36,432 bases of DNA from Candidatus Woesearchaeota archaeon (GTDB taxonomy: Archaea; Nanobdellota; Nanobdellia; Pacearchaeales; GW2011-AR1): NCBI GenBank assembly GCA_964466575.1, contig CAYXNP010000008.1, positions 9,060-45,491 on the forward strand, written 5' to 3'. A program made the translations under genes and the position numbers. The notes below the pieces were generated by a model, which worked only from the letters and a program-made list of their open reading frames with translations, was not told where the DNA came from and ran no database searches. Positions 2,580 through 30,503 of the stretch are shown here, piece after piece (within the stretch, counting starts at the first letter, position 1; each line of letters opens with the position of its first letter).

Positions 2580-2580
2580 A

Positions 2581-16271: not shown

Positions 16272-16352
16272 GAATTTATGAAGAAAGGTTGATTTTTAAG
16301 TTTTTGTTAATTTGGAGCGTGTCTAAAAAATAGTTTTTTCTAATGGTTTATT

Positions 16353-16431
16353 CCGACGCAATTTCATAGTCCCACCATCCACTCCCCTACCACCCGCCCG
16401 AGTAGTTAGTGAATTAATGAAATTCCGTCGG
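16353..16431. repeat. Stem-loop repeat family copy C: stem CCGACGCAATTTCAT/ATGAAATTCCGTCGG enclosing CCCACCATCCACTCCCCTACCACCCGCCCGAG; flanking sequence GTCTAAAAAATAGTTTTTTCTAATG is shared with copy D
   Basis: Direct comparison with 34098-34340. Confidence 0.6.
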
Positions 16432-16593
16432 TAAATAATATTATATTGAATGAATTATTCGACACGCCCGTTAATTTGCTTCGCCTGACGGCTCAGTTAT
16501 TAAAGAGAGTTAATCTAGATTCATTCATTCATAAGTTGAGTTACTTGCTTTTGCTTTGTTTCACCCCCTCAACCAAGCCAGTATTTTTGGTAT

Positions 16594-16639
16594 TCTAAAA
16601 ACTTATAAATGATTAAATTATAGAAATTTAATCATTAAA
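16594..16639 (+). promoter_or_regulatory. tRNA promoter module (TTCTAAAAACTTATAAATGATTAAATTATAGAAATTTAATCATTAAA) with a TATA-like element about -26; duplicated at 16978..17037
   Basis: Exact duplication of about 46 bp immediately upstream of two tRNA-Glu 5-prime modules. Confidence 0.5.
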
Positions 16640-16858
16640 GCCCCTGTAGTATATGGAGGCCAAGTATGTCTATTCGCAACCCCACTCGAAATTCGGGCGA
16701 TTTGAAAGTCTCGCGAAGTTGCTTTACTCGCGACCCCGCTCCACCACCATCGCCCAAAGAACCTAAACGCGAAGTCGTTCGCCCTCTCAGCCGATCTAGC
16801 ATACTTGGATTTATTATTTGCAGAGGAATAAATAATTAAATCATGCAAACATGATTTA
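16640..16858 (+). pseudogene. Degenerate tRNA-Glu-like module 1: intact-looking 5-prime part (GCCCCTGTAGTATATGGAGGCCAAGTATG) followed by about 180 nt of unrelated structured sequence; no T-arm or acceptor 3-prime strand
   Basis: The 5-prime 30 nt is nearly identical to the functional tRNA-Glu at 17038; CCAAGTATG pairs with a downstream CATACTTGG, and there is an anticodon-loop-like CCCTCTCA. Confidence 0.4.
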
Positions 16859-16863
16859 AAGAA

Positions 16864-16977
16864 GCCCCTGTAGTATAGAGGCCAAGTATGCCTATTCGAG
16901 CCCACGACTTGCTATTAGTATCATTAGATTGTTCAAGTCGTAAACTCTCACCCTCTCAACCGAGTTCGGCATACTTA
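16864..16977 (+). pseudogene. Degenerate tRNA-Glu-like module 2: 5-prime part identical to tRNA-Glu through position about 30, then a hairpin unit (CCCACGACTTG...CAAGTCGTAAACTCTCACCCTCTCAACCGAGTTC) and a complementary GGCATACTT; no acceptor 3-prime strand
   Basis: Direct reading; fused fragments of an anticodon loop (CCCTCTCA) and the T-arm start (CCGAGTTC). Confidence 0.4.
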
Positions 16978-17037
16978 ATTCTAAAAACTTATAAATGATT
17001 AAATTATAGAAATTTAATCATTAAAGCCCCTGTAGTA

Positions 17038-17193
17038 TAGAGGCCAAGTATGCCGCCCTCTCATTACCGAAGTTTAGTCGATGAGATGGTAACTTCAGTC
17101 CCCTTAGGACAGGTATCCTTGTTATATCCTCTGATTTTTTCAAGGATATTTCAGAGAACGGCGGTGACCCGAGTTCAAATCTCGGCGGGGGCA
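17038..17193 (+). tRNA. tRNA-Glu(CUC) with an 83-nt intron at the canonical 37/38 position (exon 1 17038..17075, exon 2 17159..17193 including discriminator A; CCA not encoded)
   Basis: Manual fold: acceptor GCCCCTG/CGGGGGC, D-arm GTAT/GTAT, anticodon stem CCGCC/GGCGG, loop CUCUCA with anticodon CUC, T-arm CCGAG-TTCAAAT-CTCGG. Intron ends were inferred from stem complementarity; the BHB was not verified. Confidence 0.7.
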
Positions 17194-17246
17194 TTAGAAC
17201 TAATAGGGCGAAATATTTATAAAGTAGGGCTTTATTATATTTCTTA

Positions 17247-18119
17247 ATGAAAACACCATTTGGAAAAGTTAATATAGAGCGTATTGAAATAATTAAGCGT
17301 GCGTATGAAATAGAGGGGAGAATGACTTTAAGGCGTTGCTTTTATGTTTTATATGGAAAGGGAAAAATAAAAAATTCAAAAAGCGCATACCAAAGTTTAT
17401 CACAAATATTTCTTAAAGCGAGAGAGTTGGGTTATTTAGATTGGAATATTATAGAGGATAGGCACAGACAAATTTTAAGAAGAACTACTTATAGTGATTT
17501 TGATAGTGCGTTTGATATTTTGTGTAAATATTATAGAAAAGATAGTATGTTATCACAAGATAATTATGTTGAAGTTTGGATAGAGAAAGACGCAGTTGCA
17601 GGAATTGTTTATGATTTAACGTATGATTTAGATGTGTTGCTACTAGTAGGGAAAGGATTTGTTAGCGGAACACATTTAAAAAAAGCGAGCGATAGATTTA
17701 AAGAAATTGATAAACCAATTACTATTTTATATATTAGTGATTATGATTGTGAGGGTGAATTTTTTAAAAGAAAAGCAGAAGAGAAATTAAAAGAGTATGG
17801 TTGTGAAAACGTTAGTATTAAAAAAATTCTTTTAACTAAACCACAAATAAAGAAATATAAGTTATTAATTAATTTTGTTGAATTTAAAAAAGAACAATTA
17901 AGAAAAAATTATGTTCAAGAATTTAAGAAAAATAATAAAGATTTAGGGAATGACGGAGAAATACAAGTTGAGTTAGACGCGCTTTCTAACATAGAATTAA
18001 AAGTGATTTTACAAAAAGAATTAGATGATTTGGTTGATAGCAAAATAGCAGAATTATCAGATACGGAAAGTTTGAAAGAGGTTGAAAAATGGAAAAAGAA
18101 AAATTTAAAAATAAAATGA
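17247..18119 (+). CDS. Standalone Top6A/Spo11-like protein (5Y-CAP with RxxFY plus a Toprim domain), Mini-A-like; first gene of the integrated element
   Basis: MTLRRCFYVLYG (a candidate catalytic Tyr with Arg at -4 as in Spo11 RDIFY), Toprim glutamate motif VWIEKDAVAGIV (compare Top6A/Spo11 VEKDAVF) and DxD motif YISDYDCEGE about 50 aa later. Confidence 0.55.
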   Translation: MKTPFGKVNIERIEIIKRAYEIEGRMTLRRCFYVLYGKGKIKNSKSAYQSLSQIFLKARELGYLDWNIIEDRHRQILRRTTYSDFDSAFDILCKYYRKDSMLSQDNYVEVWIEKDAVAGIVYDLTYDLDVLLLVGKGFVSGTHLKKASDRFKEIDKPITILYISDYDCEGEFFKRKAEEKLKEYGCENVSIKKILLTKPQIKKYKLLINFVEFKKEQLRKNYVQEFKKNNKDLGNDGEIQVELDALSNIELKVILQKELDDLVDSKIAELSDTESLKEVEKWKKKNLKIK

Positions 18120-19453
18120 AAGAACAAAGTTTAGTATTAAAGATAAAGAATGTTAGCGAGGCAGATAAGAGCTATAATTTTAAACACCTTATAGAACAGC
18201 AATTAAAGAATATTCTAGAAAATAAGAAAATTAGTAATAAGAATAAACAATTAATTATTTCATTTTTACAGAATTGCATTAATGAAAGTTTAAGTAATGC
18301 AAGAGTGAGTTTTTATATTTCAAAATTTAAGATTATTACTAGGATAATTAAAAAAGATTTTGATAAATGTGAAAAAGGAGATATTGAAAAATTTATTAGT
18401 GAAATTTCTAGTAGGTATGATAAAGCAGAAACAAGAAGAGCTTTTATAGTTACCATAAAAAAGTTTTATAGATATTTAACGGGTGAAGATAACCCGAAAG
18501 TTATTAGTTGGATTAAAGGAAAAAATTATAATAAAACTGCAAAACGCCAAAGTGAGAAAATAAAAATTGAGAATATTTTAACAGCGCAAGAAGTAGAATT
18601 AATGATAGAAAAGGCGAGTAATCCACGAGATAGAGCATTAATGGGTTTATTGTATTATAGTGCGGGGCGTATTGGTGAGGTTATTATTTTAAGAATTAAA
18701 GATATTGAGTTTAATGATTATAGAACTATTGTAGGTTTGAATGGAAAAACGGGTTATAGAAAAGTGCCTGTTATTGAATGTAGTAAGATGTTAAAGGATT
18801 GGTTAGAATATCATCCAGATAAAAATAATAAAGAAGCGTATGTTTGGGTTAGTTTTGCAGATGTTAATAGAATTAAAAATTTAAATAAAGGCGGAAAAAA
18901 TAAGCAAGAATTACGAGAGCCAAAAATTAATTCTAGCCAACATATCGGGGTTAGATATGTAGCTAAACTTTTAGGAGAGTTAGGTGATTTAGCGGGAATT
19001 GATAAAAAAGTTAATCCACATAATTTTAGACATTCTAGATTAACAGCTTTGGGAATAATGGGTATTGATGAAGATATGATAAAACTTTATGCGGGGCATA
19101 GTAAAACTTCTAATGTTACTAGTATGTATAAACATTATAGTTATGATAACTTAAATAATGAATTTGATAAATTATACGGGATTAAAACAGAAGAAAAAAA
19201 TAATGAATTGATTAATTGTTTTAGGTGTGGGCATTTAAATAGAAATACGCTAGAAGTGTGTGAGAACTGCGGTTTAGCTTTAAATGTGAAAGAGGCGGGA
19301 AATTTAGATAAAATAAAAAAGAAACAAGCGAGCGTAAATAAAATTATGAAGGTATTGTTAGAAGATGATGTATTTAAGAAATTTCTAGCGCGTTATTTAA
19401 TTGATAAAAATATGGTTGATTATGCTAAACAATTAGCCGAAGAGGAAAATTAA
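18089..19453 (+). CDS. int: Tyrosine recombinase/integrase (454 aa) with a C-terminal Zn-ribbon
   Basis: Catalytic R (YYSAGRIGEV), HxxR (NPHNFRHSRLT) and Y (MYKHYSY); CxxC...CxxC (CFRCGH...CENCG); tRNA-proximal position typical of integrases. Confidence 0.8.
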   Translation: MEKEKFKNKMKEQSLVLKIKNVSEADKSYNFKHLIEQQLKNILENKKISNKNKQLIISFLQNCINESLSNARVSFYISKFKIITRIIKKDFDKCEKGDIEKFISEISSRYDKAETRRAFIVTIKKFYRYLTGEDNPKVISWIKGKNYNKTAKRQSEKIKIENILTAQEVELMIEKASNPRDRALMGLLYYSAGRIGEVIILRIKDIEFNDYRTIVGLNGKTGYRKVPVIECSKMLKDWLEYHPDKNNKEAYVWVSFADVNRIKNLNKGGKNKQELREPKINSSQHIGVRYVAKLLGELGDLAGIDKKVNPHNFRHSRLTALGIMGIDEDMIKLYAGHSKTSNVTSMYKHYSYDNLNNEFDKLYGIKTEEKNNELINCFRCGHLNRNTLEVCENCGLALNVKEAGNLDKIKKKQASVNKIMKVLLEDDVFKKFLARYLIDKNMVDYAKQLAEEEN

Positions 19454-19507
19454 AATATAAAATAATAATATTTAAAAAAGATATAAACCTTAATAGTATA
19501 TTAAAAA

Positions 19508-20038
19508 ATGAGAAAAGAAAAAATAGAAAAACGAAAACGTGGAGTACCTTATTTAGGTAGTATTGATTTAGAAATTTTGGAATTTTTAGATACGCCGAAT
19601 TATATAGCAAATAAAAACGGGTGGGCGGTTTTGGATGTTGTTGAAAAAATGGGAATACAACATAATAACCTTAAACCGCATATTGATAAATTATTAAAAT
19701 TAAAATTAATAGTTGTAGTTGATTTAAGCGATTATAAACATAAAGGAAAAAGGATTATTGAAAATAAAAAAGTTGGTTTAACTTCTATTAAAGCTAGAAA
19801 TAATTTTTGGCTTGAAAATTATGCGGATTTTGATGGGGATGAGAAATATAAAGAAGAGGCAAAGAAAGAGAATGAATATTTTGATTTTATTATTTCATTC
19901 TTTAGAGATATAAAAAAATATTTTTATGATAAAGAGAATGAAGAATTTTTAAAATTAGATTTGCGAAGTAAAGAAACGCAAGAAAACTTTAAACAAAATT
20001 ATTCAAGAAAAAATGAAAAGACAACTACTAAAAAGTAA
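19508..20038 (+). CDS. Putative winged-helix DNA-binding protein with a Lys/Glu-rich C-terminal tail
   Basis: An HTH-like N-terminal region (LEILEFLDTPNYIANKNGWAVLDVVEKMGIQHNNLKPHIDKLLKLKLIVVV) resembling MarR/ArsR wHTH; inference only. Confidence 0.35.
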   Translation: MRKEKIEKRKRGVPYLGSIDLEILEFLDTPNYIANKNGWAVLDVVEKMGIQHNNLKPHIDKLLKLKLIVVVDLSDYKHKGKRIIENKKVGLTSIKARNNFWLENYADFDGDEKYKEEAKKENEYFDFIISFFRDIKKYFYDKENEEFLKLDLRSKETQENFKQNYSRKNEKTTTKK

Positions 20039-20117
20039 CTAATGTATTCTTTTAGTTTATATCTTATTAAAGTATATTAGCACAACATTTAAATAGTTTT
20101 AATAAGATATTATTAAA

Positions 20118-20351
20118 ATGGTGCAGACAACAAAAACGATTTCATTTACAGAGGAACTAGATAGGCAATTAGGTGAGGCGGTTGATGATTTAAATAAAAC
20201 GCAGATTACGGGCGCTATTTCTAAAAGTAAAATAATTCGTGTCGCTGTGTCGGAATATCTGGAAAAGTTAAATAAAATAAAAAAAATTCGTAAAGATTAC
20301 GCAGACGTAACTAAAACCGCCGAAGATATTTTAAAAGAAAATGGATATTGA
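20118..20351 (+). CDS. Ribbon-helix-helix (CopG/Arc-like) DNA-binding protein
   Basis: An N-terminal beta-strand plus two helices (KTISFTEELDRQLGEAVDDLNKTQ...IIRVAVSEYLEKL). Confidence 0.45.
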   Translation: MVQTTKTISFTEELDRQLGEAVDDLNKTQITGAISKSKIIRVAVSEYLEKLNKIKKIRKDYADVTKTAEDILKENGY

Positions 20352-20440
20352 TTTTTGTGTAACAGACGCTAAATATTGGAAACCCATAATTGAGGAAATT
20401 AAAAAAATTCAGGAACATCGCGAAATTTTGAAAGCTAGTT

Positions 20441-20671
20441 TTGAGGGAATTAAATAAATTTTTTGAGGTAATAAAAATGTGTTGTGATAAGTATAAAAAA
20501 GTAAGAGTAATTTTTGAGGATTTAAACGCTATTAATAAAAGCCGTTCTAAAGTTGGTTATATTCTTTCTAAAGATAATGAATTTGTAGAAATTAAAACAG
20601 ATAATCGCACGGAGTTTATACCGATTTGTAAAATAATCAGAATTGAGGTTTTAGAAAATGGATATAAATAA
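20441..20671 (+). CDS. Hypothetical small protein; likely start ATG 20477 (SD GAGGTAA)
   Basis: ORF track; a small beta-rich protein. Confidence 0.3.
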   Translation: MRELNKFFEVIKMCCDKYKKVRVIFEDLNAINKSRSKVGYILSKDNEFVEIKTDNRTEFIPICKIIRIEVLENGYK

Positions 20672-20915
20672 TTTAACAAACGCTGTAAAAGAAATAGAAA
20701 AAAATATTAAGATATTGGAAAATTCTAAATTTGAAAAAATAAAATATCTTGTTAAGAATGGGCGACAAGTTAAGCTAACTTTATGTAATGATGATTTAAA
20801 AAATTTGTTTGATGTTGAAGAAATTAAAAGTGTTGAGAAATTTGTAAATACTTCTAAATTTTCTAAACAAGTTAGGATGTATGAATTTAAAAGTGGATTT
20901 ATAATTTTAAAATGA
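20658..20915 (+). CDS. Hypothetical protein (85 aa), overlaps the previous gene (operonic)
   Basis: ORF track; 14-nt overlap. Confidence 0.3.
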   Translation: MDINNLTNAVKEIEKNIKILENSKFEKIKYLVKNGRQVKLTLCNDDLKNLFDVEEIKSVEKFVNTSKFSKQVRMYEFKSGFIILK

Positions 20916-21044
20916 AACAGAAAAAAGATTATGAAAATACAAACGGGTTAAGCGATAGCAAGTTAAAAGAATTATTTGATAGAAAGTTTAGAGAAGTTTT
21001 AAGATTAAGAAATTGTGATAAAATAAAAATTAGGTTGGTGAAAA

Positions 21045-21383
21045 ATGGAAAATAATGATAAGATAATAGAACGGGGAAAACAAACTTTTAAAGAAAAGGA
21101 GAAATTTGAAAAAATGAAATTAAAGAAAGACGATATTGTTCAAATTATATGGAGAGACGCTACTTCTTCAGAAGATTTTCCAATTCATAAAATTAAAAAC
21201 CCCACTGAAATGTTATCTGTTTGTAAAAATGTTGGTTTTTTTGTTGGTAGGGATAAAGGGGCGATTTGTGTTGCAACACAAATTAGCGATGATTTGAAAA
21301 TGGATTTATTAGTAATCCCTTTAAGTTGGACTATTAAAATTATAAAATTAAAAGGTAAATTAGAAAATGGAAACCCAAAATAA
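21045..21383 (+). CDS. Hypothetical protein (112 aa)
   Basis: ORF track. Confidence 0.35.
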   Translation: MENNDKIIERGKQTFKEKEKFEKMKLKKDDIVQIIWRDATSSEDFPIHKIKNPTEMLSVCKNVGFFVGRDKGAICVATQISDDLKMDLLVIPLSWTIKIIKLKGKLENGNPK

Positions 21384-21867
21384 TTATAATGTTGATAAGC
21401 TAGAATTTAGGCAGATTGTTCTAGGGCATATTAAAAGGATTTTAGAAATAGGTAGCCACGAGTTACGGGATACCACGCGACAGATTGATACAGCTAACCA
21501 CACGCAGATTATAGAACAAGAGGATACAAGATATAGTTATATACAAGCGATAGAAAATTTAGCTTATGTTTTAATACCTTATTTTGATGATGAGATATTA
21601 CAAGTTTATGAAAGATGTGAGAGAATTATAAATGGGTTTGGTTATGAGGTTAGAAATATTTTAAATAAAACATTTGAACGAATAAAAAAGGAAACAGGGA
21701 AAGAAAATTTAGAAAATGTTTTTGTTTTAGAGATGAGGTTAAGATATTCAAAGAAATTATTTATTGCATTAAATATGCTGTTAAAGAGAAATGATTATTT
21801 GAAGAGTGCTATTTATGGAGAGGAGAAAGATGAAGTTGCGCAAGATAATGAAGAGAGTGAGGAATAA
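21367..21867 (+). CDS. Hypothetical protein (166 aa) with an acidic C-terminus
   Basis: ORF track; the stop overlaps the start of the ATPase gene (TAATG). Confidence 0.35.
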   Translation: METQNNYNVDKLEFRQIVLGHIKRILEIGSHELRDTTRQIDTANHTQIIEQEDTRYSYIQAIENLAYVLIPYFDDEILQVYERCERIINGFGYEVRNILNKTFERIKKETGKENLENVFVLEMRLRYSKKLFIALNMLLKRNDYLKSAIYGEEKDEVAQDNEESEE

Positions 21868-22817
21868 TGGCGAACGCAATAGTAATTTATCGCGGGAAAG
21901 CAAAAAATAATAGTTGGGCGCGTTGGATGGTTAGCAGAACTATGAAACAGAATAAAAATAATCTTATTTCTGTGGTAGGAAAAACGGGCAGTGGAAAAAC
22001 CCTAAGTGCTATTTCTATATGTGAGATAATGAGTAAAATGGATGGTGTTCCTTTTGATGTTAAGATACACGTAGTTTTTACTTTAAAAGAATTAATGGAT
22101 TTAATTAATAGCGGAAAGTTAAGGCGAGGTAGTAAAATAGTTTGTGACGAATTTCAGTGTAGCGTATCCGCGCGTGAATTTCAAACTAAAGCAAACAAAA
22201 TTTTTAATTATGTATTAAGCACGTTTAGGCATTTGAATTTAACTTTATTCTTTTGCACACCATTTGAAACCTTGTTAGATAAGAACACTAGAAAGTTATT
22301 TCACGCACGTATTGAAACTATGAACATTAATAAGAATAATCAAACGTGCAGATTAAAACCGCGCTATATTGAGTATGCAGATTTTAAAGCCGAGCCATAT
22401 AGAAAACAAATGATTGTTTGCTATAAAGATGATAGTGGTAATAATAAATCGCGCCCGTTATTTTATTGGGATGTTCCGCGCCCGAGTAAAGAGAATGAAG
22501 ATAGTTATGAGAAAATGAAGTTTGATTTTACTAGAAGATTGAATAAAAATATTTCATTAGAGTTAAAGAGTGATAGAAGTTTAACAGATGAGTATAAAGA
22601 AGAGATAGTAATTAGAAAGCCACTAACACAAACGCAAGAGCGGGTTATGAAAGTGCTAGCAAACATAAAAGAGAGTAATAAGTTTGAGCGTGCAAGTGAG
22701 ATATTAAAGATTAGTTTAAATGCAATACATCAAAACAAGACATTAGCAGAAAAGAAAGGTTATAGTGTTGGGGAGTTTAAAGAAAATGTTGAAGATAAGA
22801 ATACAGAACAGCAATAA
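21867..22817 (+). CDS. P-loop NTPase (Walker A GKTGSGKT, Walker B IVCDEF); possible DNA-packaging or translocase-type ATPase of the element
   Basis: Motifs ISVVGKTGSGKTLSAI and SKIVCDEFQCS; family assignment uncertain. Confidence 0.55.
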   Translation: MANAIVIYRGKAKNNSWARWMVSRTMKQNKNNLISVVGKTGSGKTLSAISICEIMSKMDGVPFDVKIHVVFTLKELMDLINSGKLRRGSKIVCDEFQCSVSAREFQTKANKIFNYVLSTFRHLNLTLFFCTPFETLLDKNTRKLFHARIETMNINKNNQTCRLKPRYIEYADFKAEPYRKQMIVCYKDDSGNNKSRPLFYWDVPRPSKENEDSYEKMKFDFTRRLNKNISLELKSDRSLTDEYKEEIVIRKPLTQTQERVMKVLANIKESNKFERASEILKISLNAIHQNKTLAEKKGYSVGEFKENVEDKNTEQQ

Positions 22818-23148
22818 GTTTATTGATGTGGCGGTTGAACATCCCTATTTATTAGGTAGCCCTGAAGTGTATGAGCGAGAACTTAAACCAAAGCTACAAG
22901 AGATTATTAATAGGGATAACTTAAAGTGTAGCGGTTGCGGTAAGCCCTTAATTAATAGGGGTTGGAAATGTGTTAATCACCGCCCTATGAGTGCGGGCGG
23001 GTTTAAAGAAAAGTTAAGGGTTGAAAATAAAGATACAGCAATTCATTATATAGATTATGAATTAAAAGATATGTGGGCTATGTTCTTATTTTGTTTTGAT
23101 ACCCGCGCAGATTGTATAAGTAAATGGAAAGACAAGCGCCCAAAATGA
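22765..23148 (+). CDS. Zn-finger protein (CxxC...CxxH), possibly HNH-like
   Basis: CSGCGKPLINRGWKCVNHRP; start uncertain (overlaps the upstream gene by 53 nt). Confidence 0.3.
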   Translation: MLGSLKKMLKIRIQNSNKFIDVAVEHPYLLGSPEVYERELKPKLQEIINRDNLKCSGCGKPLINRGWKCVNHRPMSAGGFKEKLRVENKDTAIHYIDYELKDMWAMFLFCFDTRADCISKWKDKRPK

Positions 23149-23393
23149 ATAAAGATATTGATAGTATGAGCCGAGAAGAGTTAGTTAGATTAATTAATAA
23201 TATGATAAATGAAAAGGAGTTTGGATTAAACCCAATTAATAAAGTTAGTGTTTGTGATGTTGAAGTAGCTAGTAGTATGGAGAGTTTAGATAGTTGTAAG
23301 AAAGCTGTTAATGATTTGATTAAACAAAATAAAAAGTTTATTACATTAAGACAAAATAAAATTAAAGCTGATAGTTTAGGTTATTTTGGGTGA
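23124..23393 (+). CDS. Hypothetical protein (89 aa)
   Basis: ORF track; followed immediately by the GTGAATGTA palindromic element. Confidence 0.3.
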   Translation: MERQAPKMNKDIDSMSREELVRLINNMINEKEFGLNPINKVSVCDVEVASSMESLDSCKKAVNDLIKQNKKFITLRQNKIKADSLGYFG

Positions 23394-23441
23394 AGTGAAT
23401 GTATTACTACAAAAGTGAATGTAGTAATATGTAGTAATTCA
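23392..23441. repeat. Palindromic element family (AAGTGAATGTATTACTACA / GTGAATGTAGTAAT...ATGTAGTAATTCAC), related to the elements at 29394..29476
   Basis: Direct reading; it sits at a gene end inside the element. Confidence 0.5.
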
Positions 23442-23690
23442 CGATTTATAAATAAAGATAATTCTGTTTTCTTGATGTTAAAACTAATAGCTTGTTTAAT
23501 CGCGATTAGAATTTCTAAACAGATTAGAGAGAACTATATTAAAAGATGTGTTGGGTGTGGCGCGGAGTTAGATATAGAAGATTATTTTTTTAATAATTGC
23601 TGTGAGTATTGCGGTAGCACACAAGGTTATGATAAAGAGTATTGTGGAAATTCTGAATTAAATAATTGTGTGGTGTTAGAAAATGTTTAA
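23415..23690 (+). CDS. Zn-ribbon protein (CVGCG...CCEYCG)
   Basis: Two CxxC pairs; immediately upstream of, and overlapping, the PrimPol gene. Confidence 0.35.
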   Translation: MNVVICSNSRFINKDNSVFLMLKLIACLIAIRISKQIRENYIKRCVGCGAELDIEDYFFNNCCEYCGSTQGYDKEYCGNSELNNCVVLENV

Positions 23691-24237
23691 AGATATTGAA
23701 TTATTTAACCCGAAGTTTGTAAGAACAGAAAGAGAAACTACTAACTATGAAACAGGCGCGGATTATAATGAGAATATTTATTTTGATTTTGTTAATGGTG
23801 ATTATGTTGCGCGGGATAAAGAAAGATACTGCGATTTAACTTTAAAACAATATTTAGAAAATGTTGAGAGAGAGAAAGGGTTTGTTAGCTATCATATATC
23901 TTTAAGGAGTTCGGACAACAAGAAAGCGTTATTAGTTTTTGAAAGTGATAAGAAAGGTGATGATGTTATTAAAAAATTGACTAGGTTAGTTAGAGAGAAG
24001 GGCGTTAAATTTATTCTTAAAACAAGTGGAAATAGAAGTTTGCATTTAGTAATACCTATTATTGCAGAAACCGAAGAGGAGTATAATAGGCAGTGGCTAG
24101 GGATATTTTATTTATTAGACGCAAGAGATAGAGAGTTTATTGATGAACAATTAAATAAATTTTCGGGGCAGGTTAGGGGTTTTGAAAGTTTGCATTTAAA
24201 AACTTATGATAAAAGCGAGGTTTTAGAATATGATTAA
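23683..24237 (+). CDS. Small archaeo-eukaryotic primase (AEP) / primase-polymerase-like protein (184 aa)
   Basis: AEP-like motif I (LLVFESD), motif II (LKTSGNRSLHLVIP) and motif III-like (EFIDEQ); 8-nt overlap (ATGATTAA) with the PolB gene. Not searched against profiles. Confidence 0.5.
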   Translation: MFKDIELFNPKFVRTERETTNYETGADYNENIYFDFVNGDYVARDKERYCDLTLKQYLENVEREKGFVSYHISLRSSDNKKALLVFESDKKGDDVIKKLTRLVREKGVKFILKTSGNRSLHLVIPIIAETEEEYNRQWLGIFYLLDARDREFIDEQLNKFSGQVRGFESLHLKTYDKSEVLEYD

Positions 24238-27200
24238 TTTAGAATTAGAAGATTTTGAGAATAATAAAAGAATAGTTAATAGCTTTTGTTTAGAAAATAA
24301 ATCTAATAAAAATTCTAGCGCGGGTGTTACTTCGGTTATGGGTAGAAGTAAAAACACCCGTTCTAGTTTTTTATTTGATACTATTGAACTAAATAGACAA
24401 GAACAGCTTTTAGAGGTTGCTAGGAATTTAAAAAAAGGTGAGCGTGGTGTTTGCTTAACTTACATAGCTAGCAAGTTAAAAAAGAATGATGAGAATAAAA
24501 AGTTTTTTGAAAAGGTTGTTAAAACTATTAAAGATAAGCGTGAGTTTGATATTAGTGAGGAGTTGAAAAAAGGTTATAATGTTTTTGAGAAAGGTTATAG
24601 TAAAAAGCTAGTTGATAAAACAGAACACGGGCGAGAGATTGTTAAGGCGTTGTATGGATATGAAAGAGAACTTATTATTAAGCGCGGGATAAATGAGGTT
24701 TGGGATGACTATAAAGCAAGAGTTAGTTTAATTGAAGATAAAGAAAAGCGAGAGAGAAAATTTAAGGAATGTGAAGAGGCGAAAGCATTTTTAGAAGCGA
24801 GAGGATTTTTAGAGTTTATACCTGACGCACGTAACGGAATACAAATTTATCATAGTTTAAGATTAATGGAAAATAGCGGGGGCTTGAAAATTACAAGAGA
24901 GGATTATAATGTTTTGGATTTAGGATTTAAAGAAGATATGATTAAAGGAACGCTAGCAGAGAGCGGGCTTAATGAACTTAATGAAGAATTGAAAGAAGTT
25001 AATGAGCTTGTTAAGAAAGAGTTGGAAAGTAAGAATATGGTTGTTGAGTTTAAGCCCGAGATACCAAAGCCCGCTAAAAATGATTATGGCGATTTTGGTT
25101 TAATGAATAAAGGGAATAAAAAATTTACAAAAATATATTATGATATTGAAACAGATTATAAACAAGAGGCGTGTTTAATTGGTGTTTATAATAAAGATTT
25201 AAAGAGGATTGTGTTAGCGCAGATTGTTAAAGAGATTAGATTAAAAGAGGGTGAGCAAAAGATTAACCCGAGATTTGAAAAAAGTTATAAGGATGGTTTT
25301 GAAATTATTAAGTGCGAGGTTGTTAATGGATATGAGGCGGTATTTTTAGCTGATTGTGAAAGTTATTTAGCTTGTGTTTGTAATTCTTTAATGAGGCAAG
25401 GCGATAAAACACCTAGCATATTAAAAGAAATGATTAAAGGAGTTGATATAAACTTTAATTATTTTTCAGAAATTTACAACAATAAAAGGCGTAGCTTGTG
25501 GATAGCGCATAATTCTAATTTTGATATTAATAAATTAAATCTAACTGCGAGAAATGGATTAAAACATATTGATAGTAGCGGGGTTAAGGTTGAAGATATT
25601 ATTATTAATACTTTTGGGAATAAGAAAAGATATTTAGGTTATTTATTTAATCCCGATAAAAATTTAAATGAGCGCGAGAAGTGGGGCGTTAGCTATAAGC
25701 TAGGGAATAGAAATATAGGAGTTTATTTTAAAGCTAGCACGCAGAAATACGGGTTATGGGAAAAGCCCGAGATTGAATTAAAACCTATTCAGAAAGAAAG
25801 CGATAATTATGTTTATGCGCTTGATAGTGTTTTAGTTGCTAGGGCGTTGCAGAAAAAGAGCGCTAGCTTAAAGAATTTAGGTGATGAGTATGATTTAGAA
25901 GTTAAGAAAGCAGAAAGCGAATATAATTTTAAGGGCGGTGAGTTGTGGAGTAGCGCAGAAAAAGATATTAAAGAAGTTGAGTATTTGATTAAAGATTTAT
26001 TTGTTACTGATTATGTTTTTAGAGAGCTAACGAAAGAGCTTGATGTTATTGAGAATTTACTAGGGTTAGTTAAGATTGATAAAGATAGAATTAAAAAACA
26101 CGCGTCTGAAATGCCTTATTTGTATAGGGTTTATTCTACTGCGAGTTTATCAAAGCTGTTTTATCAAATAAAGTATAGTGAGGATTATGATGATTGGAAA
26201 GTTAAACACGGCAATTCTAAATTTTATGAAAATATAAACGAGCTGTTTAAAGAGGTTTATAGCGGTGGTAGAGTTGAGATATTTAGGCACGGGATTATAA
26301 AAGATAAGAAAATAGTTTATTCTGATTTTGCTAGCTTATACCCGCACACTTCTTATTTAACAAATGTAGAGCCGTTAATGAATGATATTTTAAACAAGAA
26401 ATTAAAATTTACTTCGGATATTGAAGAGATTGAATATAGCTTTTGGGTTATGATACATAAGCTAGCAAAGAAGATTAAGAATAAAGAGCCGTTGGTTAAA
26501 GAGGATTTTTGTGATAGCGCGGTTTTAAATGTTAAAATTAATAATATTAATTTAAGGTTAAGCAGAAAGGCGAACATATTTAGAGGGAAAGTTAAAACAG
26601 ACGCTAATAAAAGAAATCGTTGCGATTTAATTATAAATAAAGGTAGCGTTGTTAATGTTAGCTGTTATGATTTATGTTATAGTGTTCTTGAACAGCATTT
26701 AATTAATAATATTAATTTAGAGGATTTACAGAAAGATATTATTTTTAATAAAGGTTTAATGGTTGTGCCGAGTTATAGAACTTCTAAAAATGAAGATATG
26801 CACACGTTACTTTATGAAAGAAGAGGTAGTATTAAAAATGAGATTAAGGGGATTGAAAAGATTAAAGAGAATGAAGAAAAAATAAAACATTTGAAAAGCC
26901 AAAGTGAATTTATTAAAATTATTCTAAATGCGGGTTATGGAATTACTGCGGAATTTAATAACGATAGAGCGGGGCAATTTTATAACCCTATTTTAGCGAG
27001 CAGTATAACGGGAATGGCTAGGTTAATGAATAACATAACAGAAATAAGCACGAGGTTTTATGGTTTTGATGTTTATTATTCTGATACTGATAGTTGTCTA
27101 ATGGATAGCGGGGGTTATGATATTGTTAGTAATTTGTTTAAGGATGTTTGCGAATTAAAAAACGAATTAAGTGAGAATGTTTTTGTTAATAATATGCTTA

Positions 27201-29341
27201 TTGTAGGCGCGAAAGAATACGCATATTTTACAAATAATAAAGAGGAGTATGGGGTTAAAACTCACGGAGTAGGTTTTAGAGCTAGCGGTTATAAAAGTGT
27301 TCTTGATAAATTATTTAGAAGTTTGATTAATGGAGTTGATAAAGATACAGCAATTAAAGAGGCGGTTGGTGTTGCGCCTATGTTAAGAGGTTTTAATTTT
27401 TCACACGTATATGGTAGAACTAGCACGCTATACACGGGATTAGCAGATATTATTAATAAAAAGAAAGAAAGTTTAGGCGAGTATAAAATAGATGATAGTG
27501 TGTTTAAATGTTATCAATATGGAAAAACGGGTTTGTTTATTTCTGATTGTGAGAATATAACAAAAGGCACGTTCGGGTTAATGTTTAGATTGAGTGAGCC
27601 GAAGATTTATTTTTTTAGTGTTAAGTATGGTTTTAATGATAAGATGTTAAAAGAAGTTTTAGAAAATATTGAGGGTATATCTGAAAACGATAGAAAGATT
27701 ATTTTAGAAAGATTAGATAGTAAGTATAGCGAGATTTTATTTTTAGATAAATATTTAGGGAAAAACGAAGATAATGTTAAACGTAGAATTTTAGAGGGTG
27801 TTGTTGGTGAGGGTAATGTTTGCGTGCCTTTTGATTGTGAAGTGAAAGAAGATATTAATATAAGTTTTAATGAGAAAAAGTTAGAGCTTGATGGTGTTGA
27901 ATACTGCGGTATGGTTGAATTACCTAAATTTGATTTTGCTAGTAAAATGCAAGCGGATTTAACAACATTTTACAGCAAGGCGATAACTTCTATAAGCAAG
28001 AGTTTAAGCTATTGGTTTGTTAAAAGGCAAAATCCCGATAATGCAGAAGAGGTTTTTAATAAAAGAAATAGCGAGTTGTTGATACCACAGAAGAAAAACG
28101 AGATATTAGTGCCGTTAAATATGGTTGAAGTGCCTGAAAGTGAGGCACAGATTAAGCTAGCCCTAGAAGAGAGAGAAAAGAAGAAAGTTTTAGATAAATA
28201 TTTTATGAAAACAGAAACGGGCGGTTATTATGGATTAAAAAAGAAAGTTGATTTTAGTGAGATTAAAGATGAACTTTTAACAATATTAAAACCTAGAAAC
28301 ACAATAATAACAGAAGAGTTTAATAAAAAGAAATATTGGTTTGAGGTTACTAGCTATAAAGCAAATAACTTTAATGCAGTTTTAAGGATTAATGTAGTTG
28401 TTGGAAATCCGCCAATACTAAAATATTATTTATGGATTAATCCAAGACATTTTAACTCTTTTTTTAATGTTGATTTGTGGAACGCGAGCTATACGGATTT
28501 AATGTTTAGTAGTGAGGGGTTAAGTAATGTTGTGAATAAGGTGTTTGAAATTGCTTATAATAATTCAGAACATTCGCACGGAGTTGTTTATAATTCTATT
28601 TTAAGCGGGTTTAGTAGAGGCGCGAGTTATAGCTTAAATGATTTGAAAAAGAATAATAAATATTTTTTAGATATTTGTTATAGCGTTGCGTGTTCGTTTA
28701 TTGTTATGAATAGTGTTAAGCATAGCAGTTTAAAGATAGGGCGTTTAGATTTGAGTAAAAATATTAATATGAATGTTGGAAAGGATAGGCAAGATTTAGT
28801 TATATCTTTTTTACAAACGCAAATGAATAAAGAAGTTGGTGATTTTTTAGATTTTAAGAGTAATAATAATTTTGTTGATAGGGTTAGATTGAGTGAAAAA
28901 ATTTATACGGCTAGTAGCGGGCATTATAGCGGGCTTGTGAATAAACGAACAAAAATAAGCCAAGTAATTTATAACAAGAGCCAACAGCTAGATTATAAAT
29001 TATTAAAGAGTTGTAGAAAGAAAAGTTTTAATTCTAGACAAATAACTAAATTTTATGAACAGAAATTAGAGATAGAGCGAAAAAATAAAGATACTAATGT
29101 GTGGCGTTTAGAAGTTCAAGCATACGGATATAAAGCAATTCAGAAAGCCGTTAATAGCTATGATAAGATTATGAAGAAAATGGAAAATTTGCTTTTGATT
29201 GTGATTAGATTAATTAATAAGATTGATATGAGTGATTTTGTTTTATTAACACAATTAGGTGAAGAGAGTAAAGCGTTTAGTTTTTGGTTTAATGATATTG
29301 TGAAAGAGAGATATAAACCGCCGTTGCTTTTGGTTACGTGA
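24230..29341 (+). CDS. polB: Giant family B DNA polymerase (1703 aa) with an intact 3-prime-5-prime exonuclease, an about 290-aa N-terminal extension and an about 700-aa C-terminal extension of unknown function
   Basis: Ordered motifs: Exo I YYDIETDY, Exo II IAHNSNFDI, Exo III YLIKDLFVTD, Pol A DFASLYPH, Pol B KIILNAGYG, Pol C YYSDTDS, KxY GAKEYAY. Confidence 0.85.
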   Translation: MINLELEDFENNKRIVNSFCLENKSNKNSSAGVTSVMGRSKNTRSSFLFDTIELNRQEQLLEVARNLKKGERGVCLTYIASKLKKNDENKKFFEKVVKTIKDKREFDISEELKKGYNVFEKGYSKKLVDKTEHGREIVKALYGYERELIIKRGINEVWDDYKARVSLIEDKEKRERKFKECEEAKAFLEARGFLEFIPDARNGIQIYHSLRLMENSGGLKITREDYNVLDLGFKEDMIKGTLAESGLNELNEELKEVNELVKKELESKNMVVEFKPEIPKPAKNDYGDFGLMNKGNKKFTKIYYDIETDYKQEACLIGVYNKDLKRIVLAQIVKEIRLKEGEQKINPRFEKSYKDGFEIIKCEVVNGYEAVFLADCESYLACVCNSLMRQGDKTPSILKEMIKGVDINFNYFSEIYNNKRRSLWIAHNSNFDINKLNLTARNGLKHIDSSGVKVEDIIINTFGNKKRYLGYLFNPDKNLNEREKWGVSYKLGNRNIGVYFKASTQKYGLWEKPEIELKPIQKESDNYVYALDSVLVARALQKKSASLKNLGDEYDLEVKKAESEYNFKGGELWSSAEKDIKEVEYLIKDLFVTDYVFRELTKELDVIENLLGLVKIDKDRIKKHASEMPYLYRVYSTASLSKLFYQIKYSEDYDDWKVKHGNSKFYENINELFKEVYSGGRVEIFRHGIIKDKKIVYSDFASLYPHTSYLTNVEPLMNDILNKKLKFTSDIEEIEYSFWVMIHKLAKKIKNKEPLVKEDFCDSAVLNVKINNINLRLSRKANIFRGKVKTDANKRNRCDLIINKGSVVNVSCYDLCYSVLEQHLINNINLEDLQKDIIFNKGLMVVPSYRTSKNEDMHTLLYERRGSIKNEIKGIEKIKENEEKIKHLKSQSEFIKIILNAGYGITAEFNNDRAGQFYNPILASSITGMARLMNNITEISTRFYGFDVYYSDTDSCLMDSGGYDIVSNLFKDVCELKNELSENVFVNNMLIVGAKEYAYFTNNKEEYGVKTHGVGFRASGYKSVLDKLFRSLINGVDKDTAIKEAVGVAPMLRGFNFSHVYGRTSTLYTGLADIINKKKESLGEYKIDDSVFKCYQYGKTGLFISDCENITKGTFGLMFRLSEPKIYFFSVKYGFNDKMLKEVLENIEGISENDRKIILERLDSKYSEILFLDKYLGKNEDNVKRRILEGVVGEGNVCVPFDCEVKEDINISFNEKKLELDGVEYCGMVELPKFDFASKMQADLTTFYSKAITSISKSLSYWFVKRQNPDNAEEVFNKRNSELLIPQKKNEILVPLNMVEVPESEAQIKLALEEREKKKVLDKYFMKTETGGYYGLKKKVDFSEIKDELLTILKPRNTIITEEFNKKKYWFEVTSYKANNFNAVLRINVVVGNPPILKYYLWINPRHFNSFFNVDLWNASYTDLMFSSEGLSNVVNKVFEIAYNNSEHSHGVVYNSILSGFSRGASYSLNDLKKNNKYFLDICYSVACSFIVMNSVKHSSLKIGRLDLSKNINMNVGKDRQDLVISFLQTQMNKEVGDFLDFKSNNNFVDRVRLSEKIYTASSGHYSGLVNKRTKISQVIYNKSQQLDYKLLKSCRKKSFNSRQITKFYEQKLEIERKNKDTNVWRLEVQAYGYKAIQKAVNSYDKIMKKMENLLLIVIRLINKIDMSDFVLLTQLGEESKAFSFWFNDIVKERYKPPLLLVT

Positions 29342-29393
29342 GATTTTTTATTTTTATTATTAATAATTTTGGTTAGCTTTTGCTTTAATTTCT

Positions 29394-29476
29394 CTATTAA
29401 GTGAATGTATTACTACATATTACTACATTCACTTACTTTTGTGTTTTGAAGTGAATGTATTACTACATTCACTTAC
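29394..29476. repeat. Two tandem copies of the palindrome AAGTGAATGTA-TTAC-TACATTCACTT, each followed by ACTTTTGTG and a T-rich tract; terminator- or origin-like hairpins downstream of polB
   Basis: A perfect 11-bp inverted repeat in copy B (29447-29472); copy A carries a 10-nt internal duplication. Confidence 0.55.
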
Positions 29477-29949
29477 TTTTGTGGTATTTTTTAAGTAGGA
29501 TATTTACACGAACGAATATGTCGCCTTTATTATTACTATAAGTTAAGCTATTCTCCGAACGATTAGAGTTTGAAATAAGGTTATGATTGTTGTGTTGATG
29601 AATATATTAGTTTTTTTATTATTCTTTTAGTATTTTTCAGTGTTTTACAGCATATAACCGCCATCACGCGCGTATTAAATTAACTTATAAGGTGAGAATT
29701 TTTAGGTATTATTCTATTGAAAGGGGTTGTTGTGGCTAGAATGAAGATGAAAGGATATAAGTAAAGAATTTCAGCAAGGGATTAGCAATAGGTTTTAATA
29801 TTGTTTCTCTAACATTAATCTTGTGTGATGTCCCATAATTACTTTACACTTTAGATTTATCTAAGGTGGTATTTTATAGATAATAATTGGGAACCAAAAG
29901 TATTTTAATAATTGAATATATAGAAATTCATAATAGGAGGACTATTAAA

Positions 29950-30072
29950 ATGAATGACAATGAATTTATCGACGACATTTTAGGACATCACCGAATAGGA
30001 AACAAAGCCATTACTGAAATGGAATTAAGTAAAGAGATTAATGAACTCTTTGATGTGAATAGAGAAATGTGA
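29950..30072 (+). CDS. Small hypothetical protein (40 aa from ATG 29950, SD AGGAGG)
   Basis: A strong SD, AATAGGAGGACT, is 8 nt upstream. Confidence 0.3.
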   Translation: MNDNEFIDDILGHHRIGNKAITEMELSKEINELFDVNREM

Positions 30073-30400
30073 ATTTTATTTTTTCTTTTTTATTAATGAA
30101 GTTGCGATTAGGAAGCAGTTAAAGATTTTCTATTTGCAAGAAGGGAAAGAGAATTAAAATGGTTTGGAATAAAGTTATAAAACCAGATTTAAAAAATGAG
30201 CAAGAAAAGGTAGCTTTATGCGTTTAAACGCTATTCTAGGGAAAGGATAAAGAAAGATATTTATAGTAGCGGTGTGTTATAAAAATACAAAGGTTTATTT
30301 TTCACGTCGGAATTTTGAAACAAAAACAATACTTCTTATTTAATTACTACTATTTTATACATAACCAATATACTTAAAAGTGTATAGGGTTAAGTGTCTT

Positions 30401-30503
30401 TTCGGCGGGGGCGTTCCTCAATTTGAACAGTTCAAATCTCTGCTCGCGAGCTCACTCACATCAAGCGATTTGGTAAGTTCGTGAACGTCGCTCGGCGGGG
30501 GCG
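30401..30503 (+). mobile_element. Right-end attachment-site remnants: two copies of the tRNA-Glu 3-prime terminus (TTCGGCGGGGGCG at 30401-30413; CTCGGCGGGGGCG at 30491-30503) with a decayed T-loop copy (CAGTTCAAATCTCTG) between them
   Basis: Identical to the T-stem 3-prime strand plus acceptor 3-prime strand of the tRNA at 17181-17192; direct repeats bracket the element 17194-30503. Confidence 0.6.

Follow-up and report, generated by a model that had tools for sequence, protein, structure and literature searches.

We consider it likely that the window, the whole stretch of 36,432 nucleotides analysed here, holds, in integrated form, a plasmid-like DPANN element that is small (11-14 kb), circular and self-replicating. 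A preliminary description of this DNA had proposed a self-replicating integrative plasmid-like element, or else a highly divergent virus, in a DPANN-like host. The plasmid-like element is supported by the att duplication, by circular and attP forms among relatives and by their insertion at other tRNA genes; as to the host, its RFC small subunit shares 80-85% identity with proteins of Pacearchaeota/Nanoarchaeota and, by this measure, the host is a Pacearchaeota-like DPANN archaeon. No description of the element was met in the literature searched.

The integration site and the bounds of the element comprise the following features.

17026..17193, + strand: tRNA-Glu(CUC), integration target (Rfam tRNA model, 42.8 bits, E=1.5e-7)
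17181..17192, + strand: attL core CTCGGCGGGGGC, 3'-terminal 12 nt of the tRNA acceptor stem
17193..17246, + strand: left arm with promoter, TAGGGCG ... TTTATAAAGTAGGGC, from core-adjoining conservation in relatives
30336..30400, + strand: right arm, including AAAAGTGTATAGGG at 30376-30389, colinear with relatives
30401..30412, + strand: attR core TTCGGCGGGGGC, true right end from the junctions of relatives, 11/12 identical to attL
30413..30502, + strand: older att scar outside the present element, read directly in the sequence

The tRNA-Glu gene matches the Rfam model over its full length (1-71), with anticodon CUC and an insertion (intron) of ~95-97 nt in the anticodon loop (17063-17159); ARAGORN and the Rfam gathering scan both missed it. 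The three copies of its 3' terminus noticed earlier were recovered, the 12-mer CTCGGCGGGGGC being exact at 17181 and 30491 and carrying one mismatch at 30401, with no match in 100 shuffles and none expected by chance. The right boundary, previously set at 30503, has to be moved. Junctions of the attP type (right end, core and left end joined) were found in three metagenome contigs (L006, L002 and L024), colinear with window positions 30330-30412 plus 17193-17250. Because these junctions fuse sequence left of 30401 to sequence right of 17193, the 30401-30412 copy is, on the evidence of the relatives, the live right end, and the element therefore spans 17193-30412 (13,220 bp). The left arm aligns with the junctions of L006 and L002 and with the region 3' of the tRNA-Asp of L030, and the right arm is colinear with what precedes the core in L006, L002 and L024. 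The sequence beyond consists of AGTTCAAATCTC (12 nt, tRNA T-loop), ~50 nt and then CTCGGCGGGGGC at 30491-30502; the right-arm motif conserved elsewhere is missing from it, and nothing comparable lies 3' of the core in relatives. By these signs the 30491 copy is an older scar.

As judged from related metagenome contigs, the element is a member of a mobile family. One relative, L023, has a terminal overlap of 127 nt and is therefore a closed circle of 12.9 kb; in L024 and L020 the gene order is circularly permuted, and tandem arrays also occur. In two relatives (L003 and L030) the element adjoins tRNA-Asp, with a 13-nt repeat, CGGTTTGGGCGTA, at the L003 insertion. The backbone conserved by tblastn across loci comprises the integrase, RHH, orf85, orf166, ATPase, Zn71, AEP and PolB genes. 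As to the excision and empty-site check suggested earlier, attP and circular forms exist in relatives, and neither an empty site nor a circular junction was recovered for exactly this copy.

All 17 ORFs of the element are intact and lie on the + strand. Those outside the replicase are:

17247..18119, + strand: Mini-A protein (Top6A/Spo11-like 5Y-CAP + Toprim), 290 aa; phrog_6247 'DNA topoisomerase', 5.3e-41
18089..19453, + strand: tyrosine integrase, 454 aa, C-terminal Cys4 Zn-ribbon; PF00589, 7e-21; phrog_1 'integrase', 1.6e-29
19508-20038, + strand: putative wHTH-like regulator, 176 aa; weak Pfam match HTH_20, E=0.026
20118-20351, + strand: putative RHH/CopG-like regulator, 77 aa; RHH_1, 6.8e-4, under the Pfam cut-off
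20341..21867, + strand: small ORFs of 38, 64, 85, 47, 112 and 166 aa; tblastn conservation across loci
21867..22817, + strand: P-loop ATPase, 316 aa, Walker A GKTGSGKT, family core gene; phrog_5484 'DnaA-like replication initiation protein', 1.3e-10
22786..23393, + strand: putative Zn-ribbon protein of 120 aa and conserved 82-aa ORF; weak ZZ zinc-finger match
23475..23690, + strand: Cys-rich (putative Zn-ribbon) 71-aa protein Zn71, opening the replicase operon and part of the family core

These matches bear out the Top6A-like Toprim/5Y-CAP gene at the start of the block, the tyrosine integrase near the tRNA and the P-loop ATPase of the preliminary description; its wHTH and RHH regulators were both matched, weakly, and the Zn-ribbon calls are by-eye readings only. 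The integrase gene, adjoining attL, is intact after integration, and homologues of 43-80% identity lie 3' of the att core in L002, L003, L006, L024 and L026. The RHH gene is kept in L002, L006, L024 and L026, the ATPase (29-86% identity) in all relatives, the 120-aa/82-aa region in L006 and L021-L024, and Zn71 (44-76% identity) in L002, L006, L021-L024 and L026. The small ORFs at 20341-21867, among them the core genes orf85 and orf166, have no Pfam or PHROG assignment and no hydrophobic segment. In the Mini-A protein, the motifs RRCFY, E...DYDCEG and QVELDAL agree with published Mini-A signatures (PMC7671362). Like known Mini-A proteins, it has ~300 aa, 5Y-CAP and Toprim parts without the N-terminal B-binding part, the motifs RxxFY, E + DxDxxG and (W)ELDAL, and a mobile-element location with no B subunit close by (PMC7671362); unlike them, it reads VELDAL rather than WELDAL, and its carrier is plasmid-like and capsid-less where theirs are recognisable (pro)viruses. 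The conservation search across loci did not find it in L002, L003, L006 or L019-L026, and by this distribution Mini-A counts as an accessory gene confined to this copy.

The remainder of the operon encodes the replicase.

23683..24237, + strand: AEP-fold primase-polymerase domain protein, 184 aa
24230..29341, + strand: giant replicase, 1703 aa, with N-terminal region, PolB exonuclease and polymerase, and conserved C-terminal domain
25097..27619, + strand: PolB core, aa ~290-1130, from motifs and PDB profile matches
27866..29257, + strand: C-terminal TBP-like-fold domain, aa ~1213-1676, from a structural model; putative Rep_trans/Rep-Arvir-like origin nickase

The translationally coupled AEP-primase/PolB module described earlier stands in its AEP fold, its intact PolB motifs and its overlapping ORFs (8 nt at the PolB start), and is to be qualified in that most relatives have primase and PolB fused as one protein. 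This fusion, the C-terminal TBP-fold domain and the iteron/hairpin origin are additions to the preliminary description. A primase is found in every close-family member, although the motif II His of the AEP domain is replaced by Gln in P0018 and P0019, a point against the reading preferred below, and an RNase H domain (PF13456) is fused to the replicase in P0002, P0019 and P0020. The giant replicase has 20 close homologues of 1650-2050 aa, and a search of 1.84 billion representative proteins gave 47 matches at E<=1e-3, including ~15 giants of 27-31% identity. The 1703-aa PolB has no Pfam match; its family profile matched, in the PDB, Thermococcus-type (archaeal) PolB at 2.9e-7 and E. coli Pol II at 2.7e-6, and its closest matches are primer-dependent PolBs. 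The residues of Exo I (D305/E307), Exo II (N428-D432), Exo III (Y585/D589), motif A (D699-P705), motif B (K896-G904), motif C (Y950-S955) and KxY (K995-Y997) are all invariant in 15 sequences with identity down to 21%.

The C-terminal domain, ~480 aa conserved throughout the giant-PolB family, is modelled with a TBP-like fold, and its structural matches include RepDE and inovirus Rep, the latter being the best viral ones. Rep_trans proteins have a TBP fold with residues Y191, D46, D142 and E214 (PMC13107129). Candidate active-site residues of the domain are D1221, Y1581, K1583, R1626 and E1628; Tyr-x-Lys and Arg-x-Glu are invariant over 20-100% identity, and the segments LWINP, GRLDLS, VIYNKS and WRLEVQ follow the order of RIEFNPNK, RLDLAFD, RIYNKK and WRVEIE in RepC. 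The domain matched no Pfam, PHROG or PDB profile, and the Rep_trans link carries no sequence statistic: hhalign gave P=0.06 to 0.12 and aligned the WRxE motif alone, and 5% of shuffled RepC controls attained the observed HMM score. On the structural model and motif order, the C-terminal domain is probably a replication-starting nickase.

Repeats and hairpins flank the replicase operon on both sides.

23391..23441, + strand: repeat pair AGTGAATGTA(T/G)TA, 5' of the replicase operon; candidate operator or second element of the origin
29369..29563, + strand: putative replication origin, from repeats, hairpins and a five-element alignment
29369-29387, + strand: conserved box TTGGTTAGCTTTTGCTTTA of the origin
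29397-29475, + strand: element-specific iterons/palindromes
29480-29563, + strand: conserved block of ~85 nt

The five-element alignment shows conserved flanks with variable iterons between them, and the origin hairpins have z=-6.8. A pattern search for AGTGAATGTA(T/G)TA gave 8 matches against 0.29 expected, specific to the element, and the hairpin at the upstream pair has z=-5.2. The origin iterons recur as an inverted pair upstream of the replicase operon in four elements, each relative having its own iteron; in L006 seven direct-repeat copies lie downstream of the replicase gene. Direct-repeat iterons at the origin with an inverted pair at the promoter are the classic layout of iteron (theta) plasmids, which need no nickase.

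The element had earlier been set apart from casposons and pipolins, and both distinctions hold. Pipolins, the integrative elements of bacteria and mitochondria that encode piPolB, share self-replication, PolB, usually a tyrosine recombinase, tRNA integration with direct repeats and the lack of capsid genes (PMC5695915, PMC11551731). In contrast, the present PolB retains KxY (K995-E-Y997) and has its matches among primer-dependent PolBs, priming would be by a separate or fused AEP primase, PolB has a C-terminal TBP-fold domain, and the host is archaeal. Casposons are likewise archaeal and integrated with their own PolB, some at tRNA genes (PMC6563490), whereas Pfam profile searches found no Cas1 in the element, its recombinase is a tyrosine integrase, and an att duplication and circular form take the place of terminal inverted repeats and target-site duplication. 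Archaeal integrative plasmids/CIE (pNOB8-type; pT26-2/TKV-like; thaumarchaeal) resemble it in passing from circular episome to tRNA-integrated form with a non-partitioning, intact integrase, in an att core formed by the tRNA 3' end, in tandem arrays and in small RHH/wHTH regulators (PMC8371274, PMC6563490). Their replication, in contrast, uses MCM, PrimPol-helicase, Cdc6 or HUH Rep. To our knowledge, no giant AEP-PolB-TBP-fold replicase has been reported among them. With Rep_trans (pT181 RepC/RepD, inovirus G2P) and Rep-Arvir (betapleolipovirus SNJ2 ORF19) the C-terminal domain shares the TBP-like fold (PMC13107129), the invariant Tyr in Y-x-K, a downstream R-x-E, an NP motif and a hairpin origin directly 3' of the gene. 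It differs in that it belongs to a DNA polymerase, where those initiators stand alone, and in its large insertions, its Tyr-to-Glu spacing of 39-47 residues against 23 and its lack of HMM-level similarity; no MarR-like wHTH, the defining feature of Rep-Arvir, was identified in it.

The locus could also be the provirus of an archaeal virus not yet described, with capsid proteins among the small ORFs and the 316-aa ATPase acting in morphogenesis or packaging. Profile searches miss many archaeal capsid proteins, and since no role has been assigned to the ATPase or to most of the small ORFs, a virion module could hide among them. Small 1-2-TM ORFs near att in L002 (3437-3598), L003 (15737-15955) and L006 (13207-13344) would fit such a module, as would the weaker Zot-like matches of the ATPase (PHROG; PDB 2r2a, E=0.11), which accompany DnaC-like PHROG matches, and Mini-A, so far reported in viruses and proviruses only (PMC7671362). 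We nevertheless judge this reading improbable: Pfam and PHROGs gave no capsid, terminase, portal, spike or other structural match, in line with the absence of a capsid-like gene remarked earlier; this copy encodes no membrane protein (hydrophobic segments 0, max KD19 1.6); Mini-A is missing from all relatives; the family is absent from IMG/VR; and replication and integration genes fill about half of the 13 kb. Still less credible is a fixed, domesticated island whose repeats are relics. The element is indeed present in all contigs of this population extending to the site (22/22 bearing the flanking PLD gene), attR and attL differ by one base, and the primase-PolB fusion is split here; but the same split occurs in L006, which bears an attP junction, every ORF is intact, both arms are shared with active-looking relatives, and other samples contain close copies (80-87% identity) in the form of circles or junction contigs.

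A more serious alternative, although we lean against it, concerns the same element replicating by a theta-type or nick-free strand-displacement mode, in which the C-terminal domain would be a non-catalytic iteron binder that melts the origin and AEP would make the leading-strand primer. The iteron layout, the primase in every close-family member, the RNase H fused in some and the lack of a significant sequence match to Rep_trans all suit this mode. A pure DNA binder is hard to square, however, with the invariance of Tyr-x-Lys and Arg-x-Glu, with their placement, which follows the RepC catalytic motifs in both order and context, and with rolling-circle initiators as top viral structural matches. 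Moreover, the C-terminal domain is retained in distant giant PolBs that have only ~150-210 aa N-terminal to the exonuclease domain, a span too small to hold an AEP domain.

For nick-primed initiation by the integrated plasmid-like element, the reading we prefer, we put the chances at about even. The integrase would excise the element as a circle, and the PolB C-terminal domain would bind its own iterons or hairpin and, on the model of Rep_trans and Rep-Arvir initiators, nick one strand through the invariant Tyr1581, with the metal held by Glu1628 and Asp1221. The freed 3'-OH would be extended by the PolB part with strand displacement, the displaced strand would be primed by the AEP part, and the upstream iteron pair may serve to autoregulate the operon.

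The 12-mer CTCGGCGGGGGC has exact copies at 17181 and 30491; a further copy, at 30401, differs at one position. By chance, none would be expected. ARAGORN and a gathering-threshold Rfam scan did not detect a tRNA beside the left repeat; a permissive Rfam scan of 16300-17300 returned a full-length tRNA at 17026-17193 (42.8 bits) with anticodon CUC and a 97-nt insertion within the anticodon loop. The repeat is therefore the 3' end of an intron-containing tRNA-Glu, in agreement with the preliminary description, which had read these repeats as copies of the tRNA-Glu 3' terminus. All ORFs between the repeats are on the + strand, and GC content is 0.289 in the element versus 0.31-0.33 in the flanks.

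The preliminary description bounded the element at 17194 and 30503; the left end and the repeats hold, and the right end is moved by the junctions of related metagenome contigs. In L006, L002 (two junctions), and L024, non-coding DNA 3' of the PolB gene leads into the motif AAAAGTGTATAGGG, followed by the core TTTCGG(N4-5)GGGCG, by TA.GAA.TA.TAGGGCG...TATAAAG.AGGGC, and by the start of the integrase gene, which places attP in these relatives between PolB and integrase. When aligned, a composite of 30330-30412 and 17193-17250 is colinear with these junctions, and the element is thus assigned to 17193-30412 (13,220 bp). The copy at 30491 was rejected as the live right end, being without the conserved right arm. 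The segment 3' of attR that contains it reads as follows.

30413-30502, region 3' of attR, read from sequence: AGTTCAAATCTC (12 nt of the tRNA T-loop), ~50 nt of other sequence, and the second CTCGGCGGGGGC

This segment, with no right-arm motif, is an older att scar, and its composite make-up suggests earlier integrations at the same tRNA. Upstream of the real gene, the tRNA-Glu 5' part is present twice more (16640-16670 and 16862-16892). Ahead of the first of these additional copies, 62 nt of the tRNA promoter region are exactly duplicated (16592-16653, identical to 16978-17039). Downstream of each copy come an insert and an anticodon-arm-like 'CCCTCTCA..CCGA..GCATACTT' segment able to pair with the D-arm, and both are without T-arm and 3' acceptor; they could be decayed att/tRNA remnants or 5'-half tRNA-like RNAs.

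Several relatives attest to the mobility of the family. Contig L023 has an exact 127-nt overlap of its termini and is therefore a closed circle of ~12.9 kb, gene order in L024 and L020 is circularly permuted (PolB, integrase ... ATPase, then wrapping round), and L002 is a tandem array. Other relatives occupy a different target: L003 adjoins tRNA-Asp(GTC), with CGGTTTGGGCGTA repeated 13.1 kb downstream, and in L030, which also opens with tRNA-Asp, the conserved left arm and then the integrase come next. The circular junction proposed as a check at the outset was found among relatives, as the L023 circle and the L006, L002, and L024 junctions, and not for the copy described here, whose own attP was not found. 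The proposed look-up of an empty site yielded none among contigs encoding the flanking PLD protein, as 22 of 22 carry the element; contigs starting at 30052 in this search are still element sequence. The integrase gene is intact after integration, a full 454-aa ORF with PF00589 lying 900 nt from attL, and the att core is the tRNA 3' end, outside that gene, as in the non-partitioning pNOB8 type. The element behaves like non-partitioning, tyrosine-integrase archaeal integrative plasmids. The element is real, and the first reading of it, as a self-replicating, integrative plasmid-like element, is supported. A 68-nt repeat (16305-16372 and 34093-34160, 92.6% identity) brackets a larger, 17.8-kb region, with a third, partial copy at L011 11109-11167, just past the right end of the window; candidate identities for this repeat are a MITE, a small RNA, and a promoter repeat.

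Genes common to the elements are those for the integrase, an RHH protein, orf85, orf166, an ATPase, orf82, a 71-aa Cys-rich protein, the AEP primase, and PolB. The Toprim/5Y-CAP gene and tyrosine integrase reported at the start of the block were both recovered, the former as phrog_6247 'DNA topoisomerase' (5e-41) and the latter as PF00589 (7e-21). Mini-A proteins are defined by a length of ~300 aa, 5Y-CAP (RxxY/FY), Toprim (E, DxDxxG), an xWELDAL box, and no B subunit (PMC7671362). The product of the first gene has 290 aa and contains RRCFY, IEKD...DYDCEG, and QVELDAL, and ORF scans revealed no GHKL protein (B subunit) in the element. Since this gene is missing from every relative, Mini-A is regarded as cargo. 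The 316-aa ATPase matches phrog_5484 (1e-10), with weak Zot-like matches; neither it nor Mini-A gave anything useful against PDB sequences. As the preliminary description had it, no capsid-like gene is recognisable: no ORF matches capsid, portal, terminase, or spike families in Pfam/PHROGs, and the ORFs of the element contain no hydrophobic segment. Capsid proteins too divergent for these searches may be encoded. Small ORFs with one or two transmembrane helices lie between origin block and att core in relatives (L002 3437-3598 and 15835-15999, L003 15737-15955, L006 13207-13344), and the copy in the window has a soluble 40-aa ORF (29950-30072) at the corresponding place.

The replication module had been described as a coupled primase and PolB, and this assignment is upheld by invariant PolB motifs, PDB profile matches, and the AEP fold. 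The giant replicase, a 1703-aa ORF at 24230-29341, has 20 close homologues of 1650-2050 aa. The 184-aa domain that forms the N-terminal start of most of them is here a separate ORF (23683-24237) with an 8-nt overlap, and three homologues have an added N-terminal RNase H domain (PF13456). The 1703-aa ORF gave no match in Pfam, PF00136 included, while some relatives do match PF00136. Searched against the PDB, the family profile matched PolB of the Thermococcus type at 2.9e-7 and Pol II of E. coli at 2.7e-6. Residues D305/E307, D432, Y585/D589, D699/Y704, K896/N900/Y903/G904, D952-S955, and K995 are invariant in all 15 sequences compared, the most distant at 21% identity, and the B-family signature is complete: Exo I-III, motif A (DxxSLYP), motif B (KxxxNSxYG), motif C (YxDTDS), and KxY, the last as K995-E-Y997 with K995 invariant and Y997 present in at least 90%. 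The catalytic motifs of the AEP superfamily are I (DxD), II (sxH), and III (hD). The 184-aa ORF has the AEP catalytic fold, with E87-S-D89 (an ExD variant) and D154 invariant and SGNRSLH present, its His replaced by Gln in homologues P0018 and P0019; in sequence-profile searches it matched LigD only (E=0.0037 in Pfam, 1.5 in PDB).

The replicase architecture is very rare. Of 1.84 billion representative proteins scanned exhaustively with HMMER, only 47 matched at E<=1e-3, ~15 of them giants of 1600-2000 aa with 27-31% identity. In GTDB species genomes (185,579 species representatives), neither the conserved block of the origin nor peptide patterns from PolB had a match, and IMG/VR had none to the PolB patterns, the origin block, or two distant giant PolBs.

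Residues ~1190-1703 of the replicase are kept across the entire giant family, with D1221, G1222, N1404, P1405, Y1581, K1583, K1590, R1626, and E1628 invariant. This C-terminal domain, missed by the preliminary description along with the element-specific origin repeats, models with the TBP-like fold of the Rep_trans/Rep-Arvir catalytic domain. A Foldseek search of viral models ranked Inoviridae replication proteins top (E 2e-3 to 3e-2), and the top matches include A0A345MNV4, the Rep_trans protein that serves as reference (PMC13107129). Rep_trans proteins have a TBP fold with active-site residues Y191, D46, D142, and E214, and their archaeal Rep-Arvir relatives are unrecognisable by sequence (PMC13107129). 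The motifs of pT181 RepC (SFDAMTIVG / RIEFNPNK / TRLDLAFD / RIYNKK / WRVEIE) are paralleled in the same order by LDGVEY / LWINP / GRLDLS / VIYNKS / WRLEVQ; Y1581-N-K1583, R1626-L-E1628, and D1221 are invariant and in RepC order, and D1507, the counterpart of D142, is not conserved in distant members. Neither Pfam/PHROGs searches of 10 C-terminal domains nor the PDB profile gave a match to Rep_trans or Rep-Arvir (PF02486 or PF25227). A search for RepC homologues was of limited use, every sequence it returned being at least 86% identical. Alignment by hhalign was non-significant against RepC alone and against Rep_trans proteins of pT181-type and Enterococcus plasmids aligned as a set of 11 sequences (P=0.06), and in hmmsearch with a shuffle control the observed HMM score was equalled by 5% of shuffles. 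Because all of these sequence statistics are non-significant, we infer nickase function from fold and motifs. The domain is probably a nickase or an origin-binding domain, and we favour, with modest confidence, a putative Rep_trans-like nickase.

Directly 3' of the replicase gene lies a putative origin, to which a different recombinase is joined in some relatives.

Directly 3' of the replicase gene, putative origin: conserved 19-nt box, ~90 nt of variable repeats, ~85-nt conserved block
L007 6490-7554, opposite strand: SHOCT-domain recombinase, joined directly after the conserved origin block
L023 11622-12521, opposite strand: SHOCT-domain recombinase, joined directly after the conserved origin block

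The ~90-nt repeats are wholly different between elements (AGTGAATGTA.. in the window, CGTATGATTT seven times in L006, CTATTAGAGTT.. in L003, ACACCTGTTAT.. in L002), whereas the ~85-nt block is strongly conserved, its last ~45 nt nearly identical, between elements with PolBs only 50% identical. The repeats fold into strong hairpins (z -2.7 to -7.2), and in four elements a pair of the element's own repeat unit also lies just upstream of the replicase operon. This co-variation downstream and upstream of the operon links the repeats with a specificity factor that the element itself encodes, and their layout fits both a nickase hairpin origin and theta-plasmid iteron/operator logic. The replacement enzyme, of 295-299 aa, is a tyrosine recombinase that carries a SHOCT domain; L007 and L006 PolBs are 100% identical, yet a different recombinase follows the origin block, which suggests modular exchange at this block.

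More tentatively, the giant protein may constitute a one-polypeptide replisome of Rep_trans-like nickase, PolB, and AEP primase. The nickase part would open the element's own origin hairpin, the PolB part would extend the nick, and the primase, with RNase H in some relatives, would take care of the displaced strand. Protein-primed replication was rejected, since members of the family are circles that enter the chromosome by site-specific recombination.

The preliminary description saw no obvious fit to casposons or pipolins, and the element belongs to neither. Casposons integrate by a Cas1 casposase and carry terminal inverted repeats with a target-site duplication, whereas here the integrase is a PF00589 tyrosine integrase, Cas1 is absent from all ORFs in Pfam and PHROGs searches, direct repeats of the tRNA 3' terminus form both ends, and long inverted repeats are confined to internal iterons. 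Pipolins share the integrative lifestyle, the tyrosine recombinase, and the direct repeats at a tRNA gene; they encode a primer-independent PolB with KTRG in place of KxY. In contrast, the giant PolB keeps KxY and finds its best PDB matches among primer-dependent PolBs, and the element has a primase and an archaeal host. An SF1-helicase-pPolB fusion from a 'Woesearchaeota' MAG also differs in architecture (PMC12721341), and no description of the giant replicase architecture was found in the literature searched.

The host, sampled from Rifle aquifer groundwater, is a DPANN archaeon, as first proposed. Among the flanking genes are those for both RFC subunits (large and small), Ogg, and PIN and HepT/MNT toxin-antitoxin pairs; proteins bearing the names Candidatus Pacearchaeota or Nanoarchaeota share 80-85% identity with the small RFC subunit. 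The toxin-antitoxin pairs occupy 12424-13025 and 14598-15223 (PIN with an 81-aa partner; HepT with an MNT nucleotidyltransferase). An NCBI giant-PolB fragment, P0016 (3.4-kb contig, 84% identical), is labelled 'Candidatus Odinarchaeia archaeon', probably through mis-binning of a short contig, the host signal here being Pacearchaeota-like. A second long-insertion tRNA at 34409-34540 (132 nt for a 71-position model, 47.4 bits) was also observed, and intron-rich tRNAs appear typical of this genome. Positions 1-7500, with a GC content of 0.455 (up to 0.53) versus ~0.30 in the remainder of the window, contain a 629-aa Band_7/SPFH ORF (3835-5724) and an odd 55-nt tRNA-model match (2299-2353). An island of foreign DNA or a chimeric assembly could account for this region.

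The debate on how the PolBs of mobile elements originated gains a deep, unclassified lineage with the giant PolBs. Should the C-terminal domain prove to be a nickase of the Rep_trans type, this fold would reach a new archaeal context soon after the description of Rep-Arvir. The one-polypeptide replisome, if true, would be the first rolling-circle initiator fused to a replicative polymerase, found in the poorly known DPANN mobilome, and the elements encoding it would stand as a new class of self-synthesizing integrative element next to casposons, pipolins, and polintons. With initiator, polymerase, and primase in one chain, it would offer a minimal replication system for biochemistry and for DPANN/archaeal vectors. 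DPANN mobile elements are almost unknown; for this family, att sites, a circular form, core genes, and a candidate origin are now defined.
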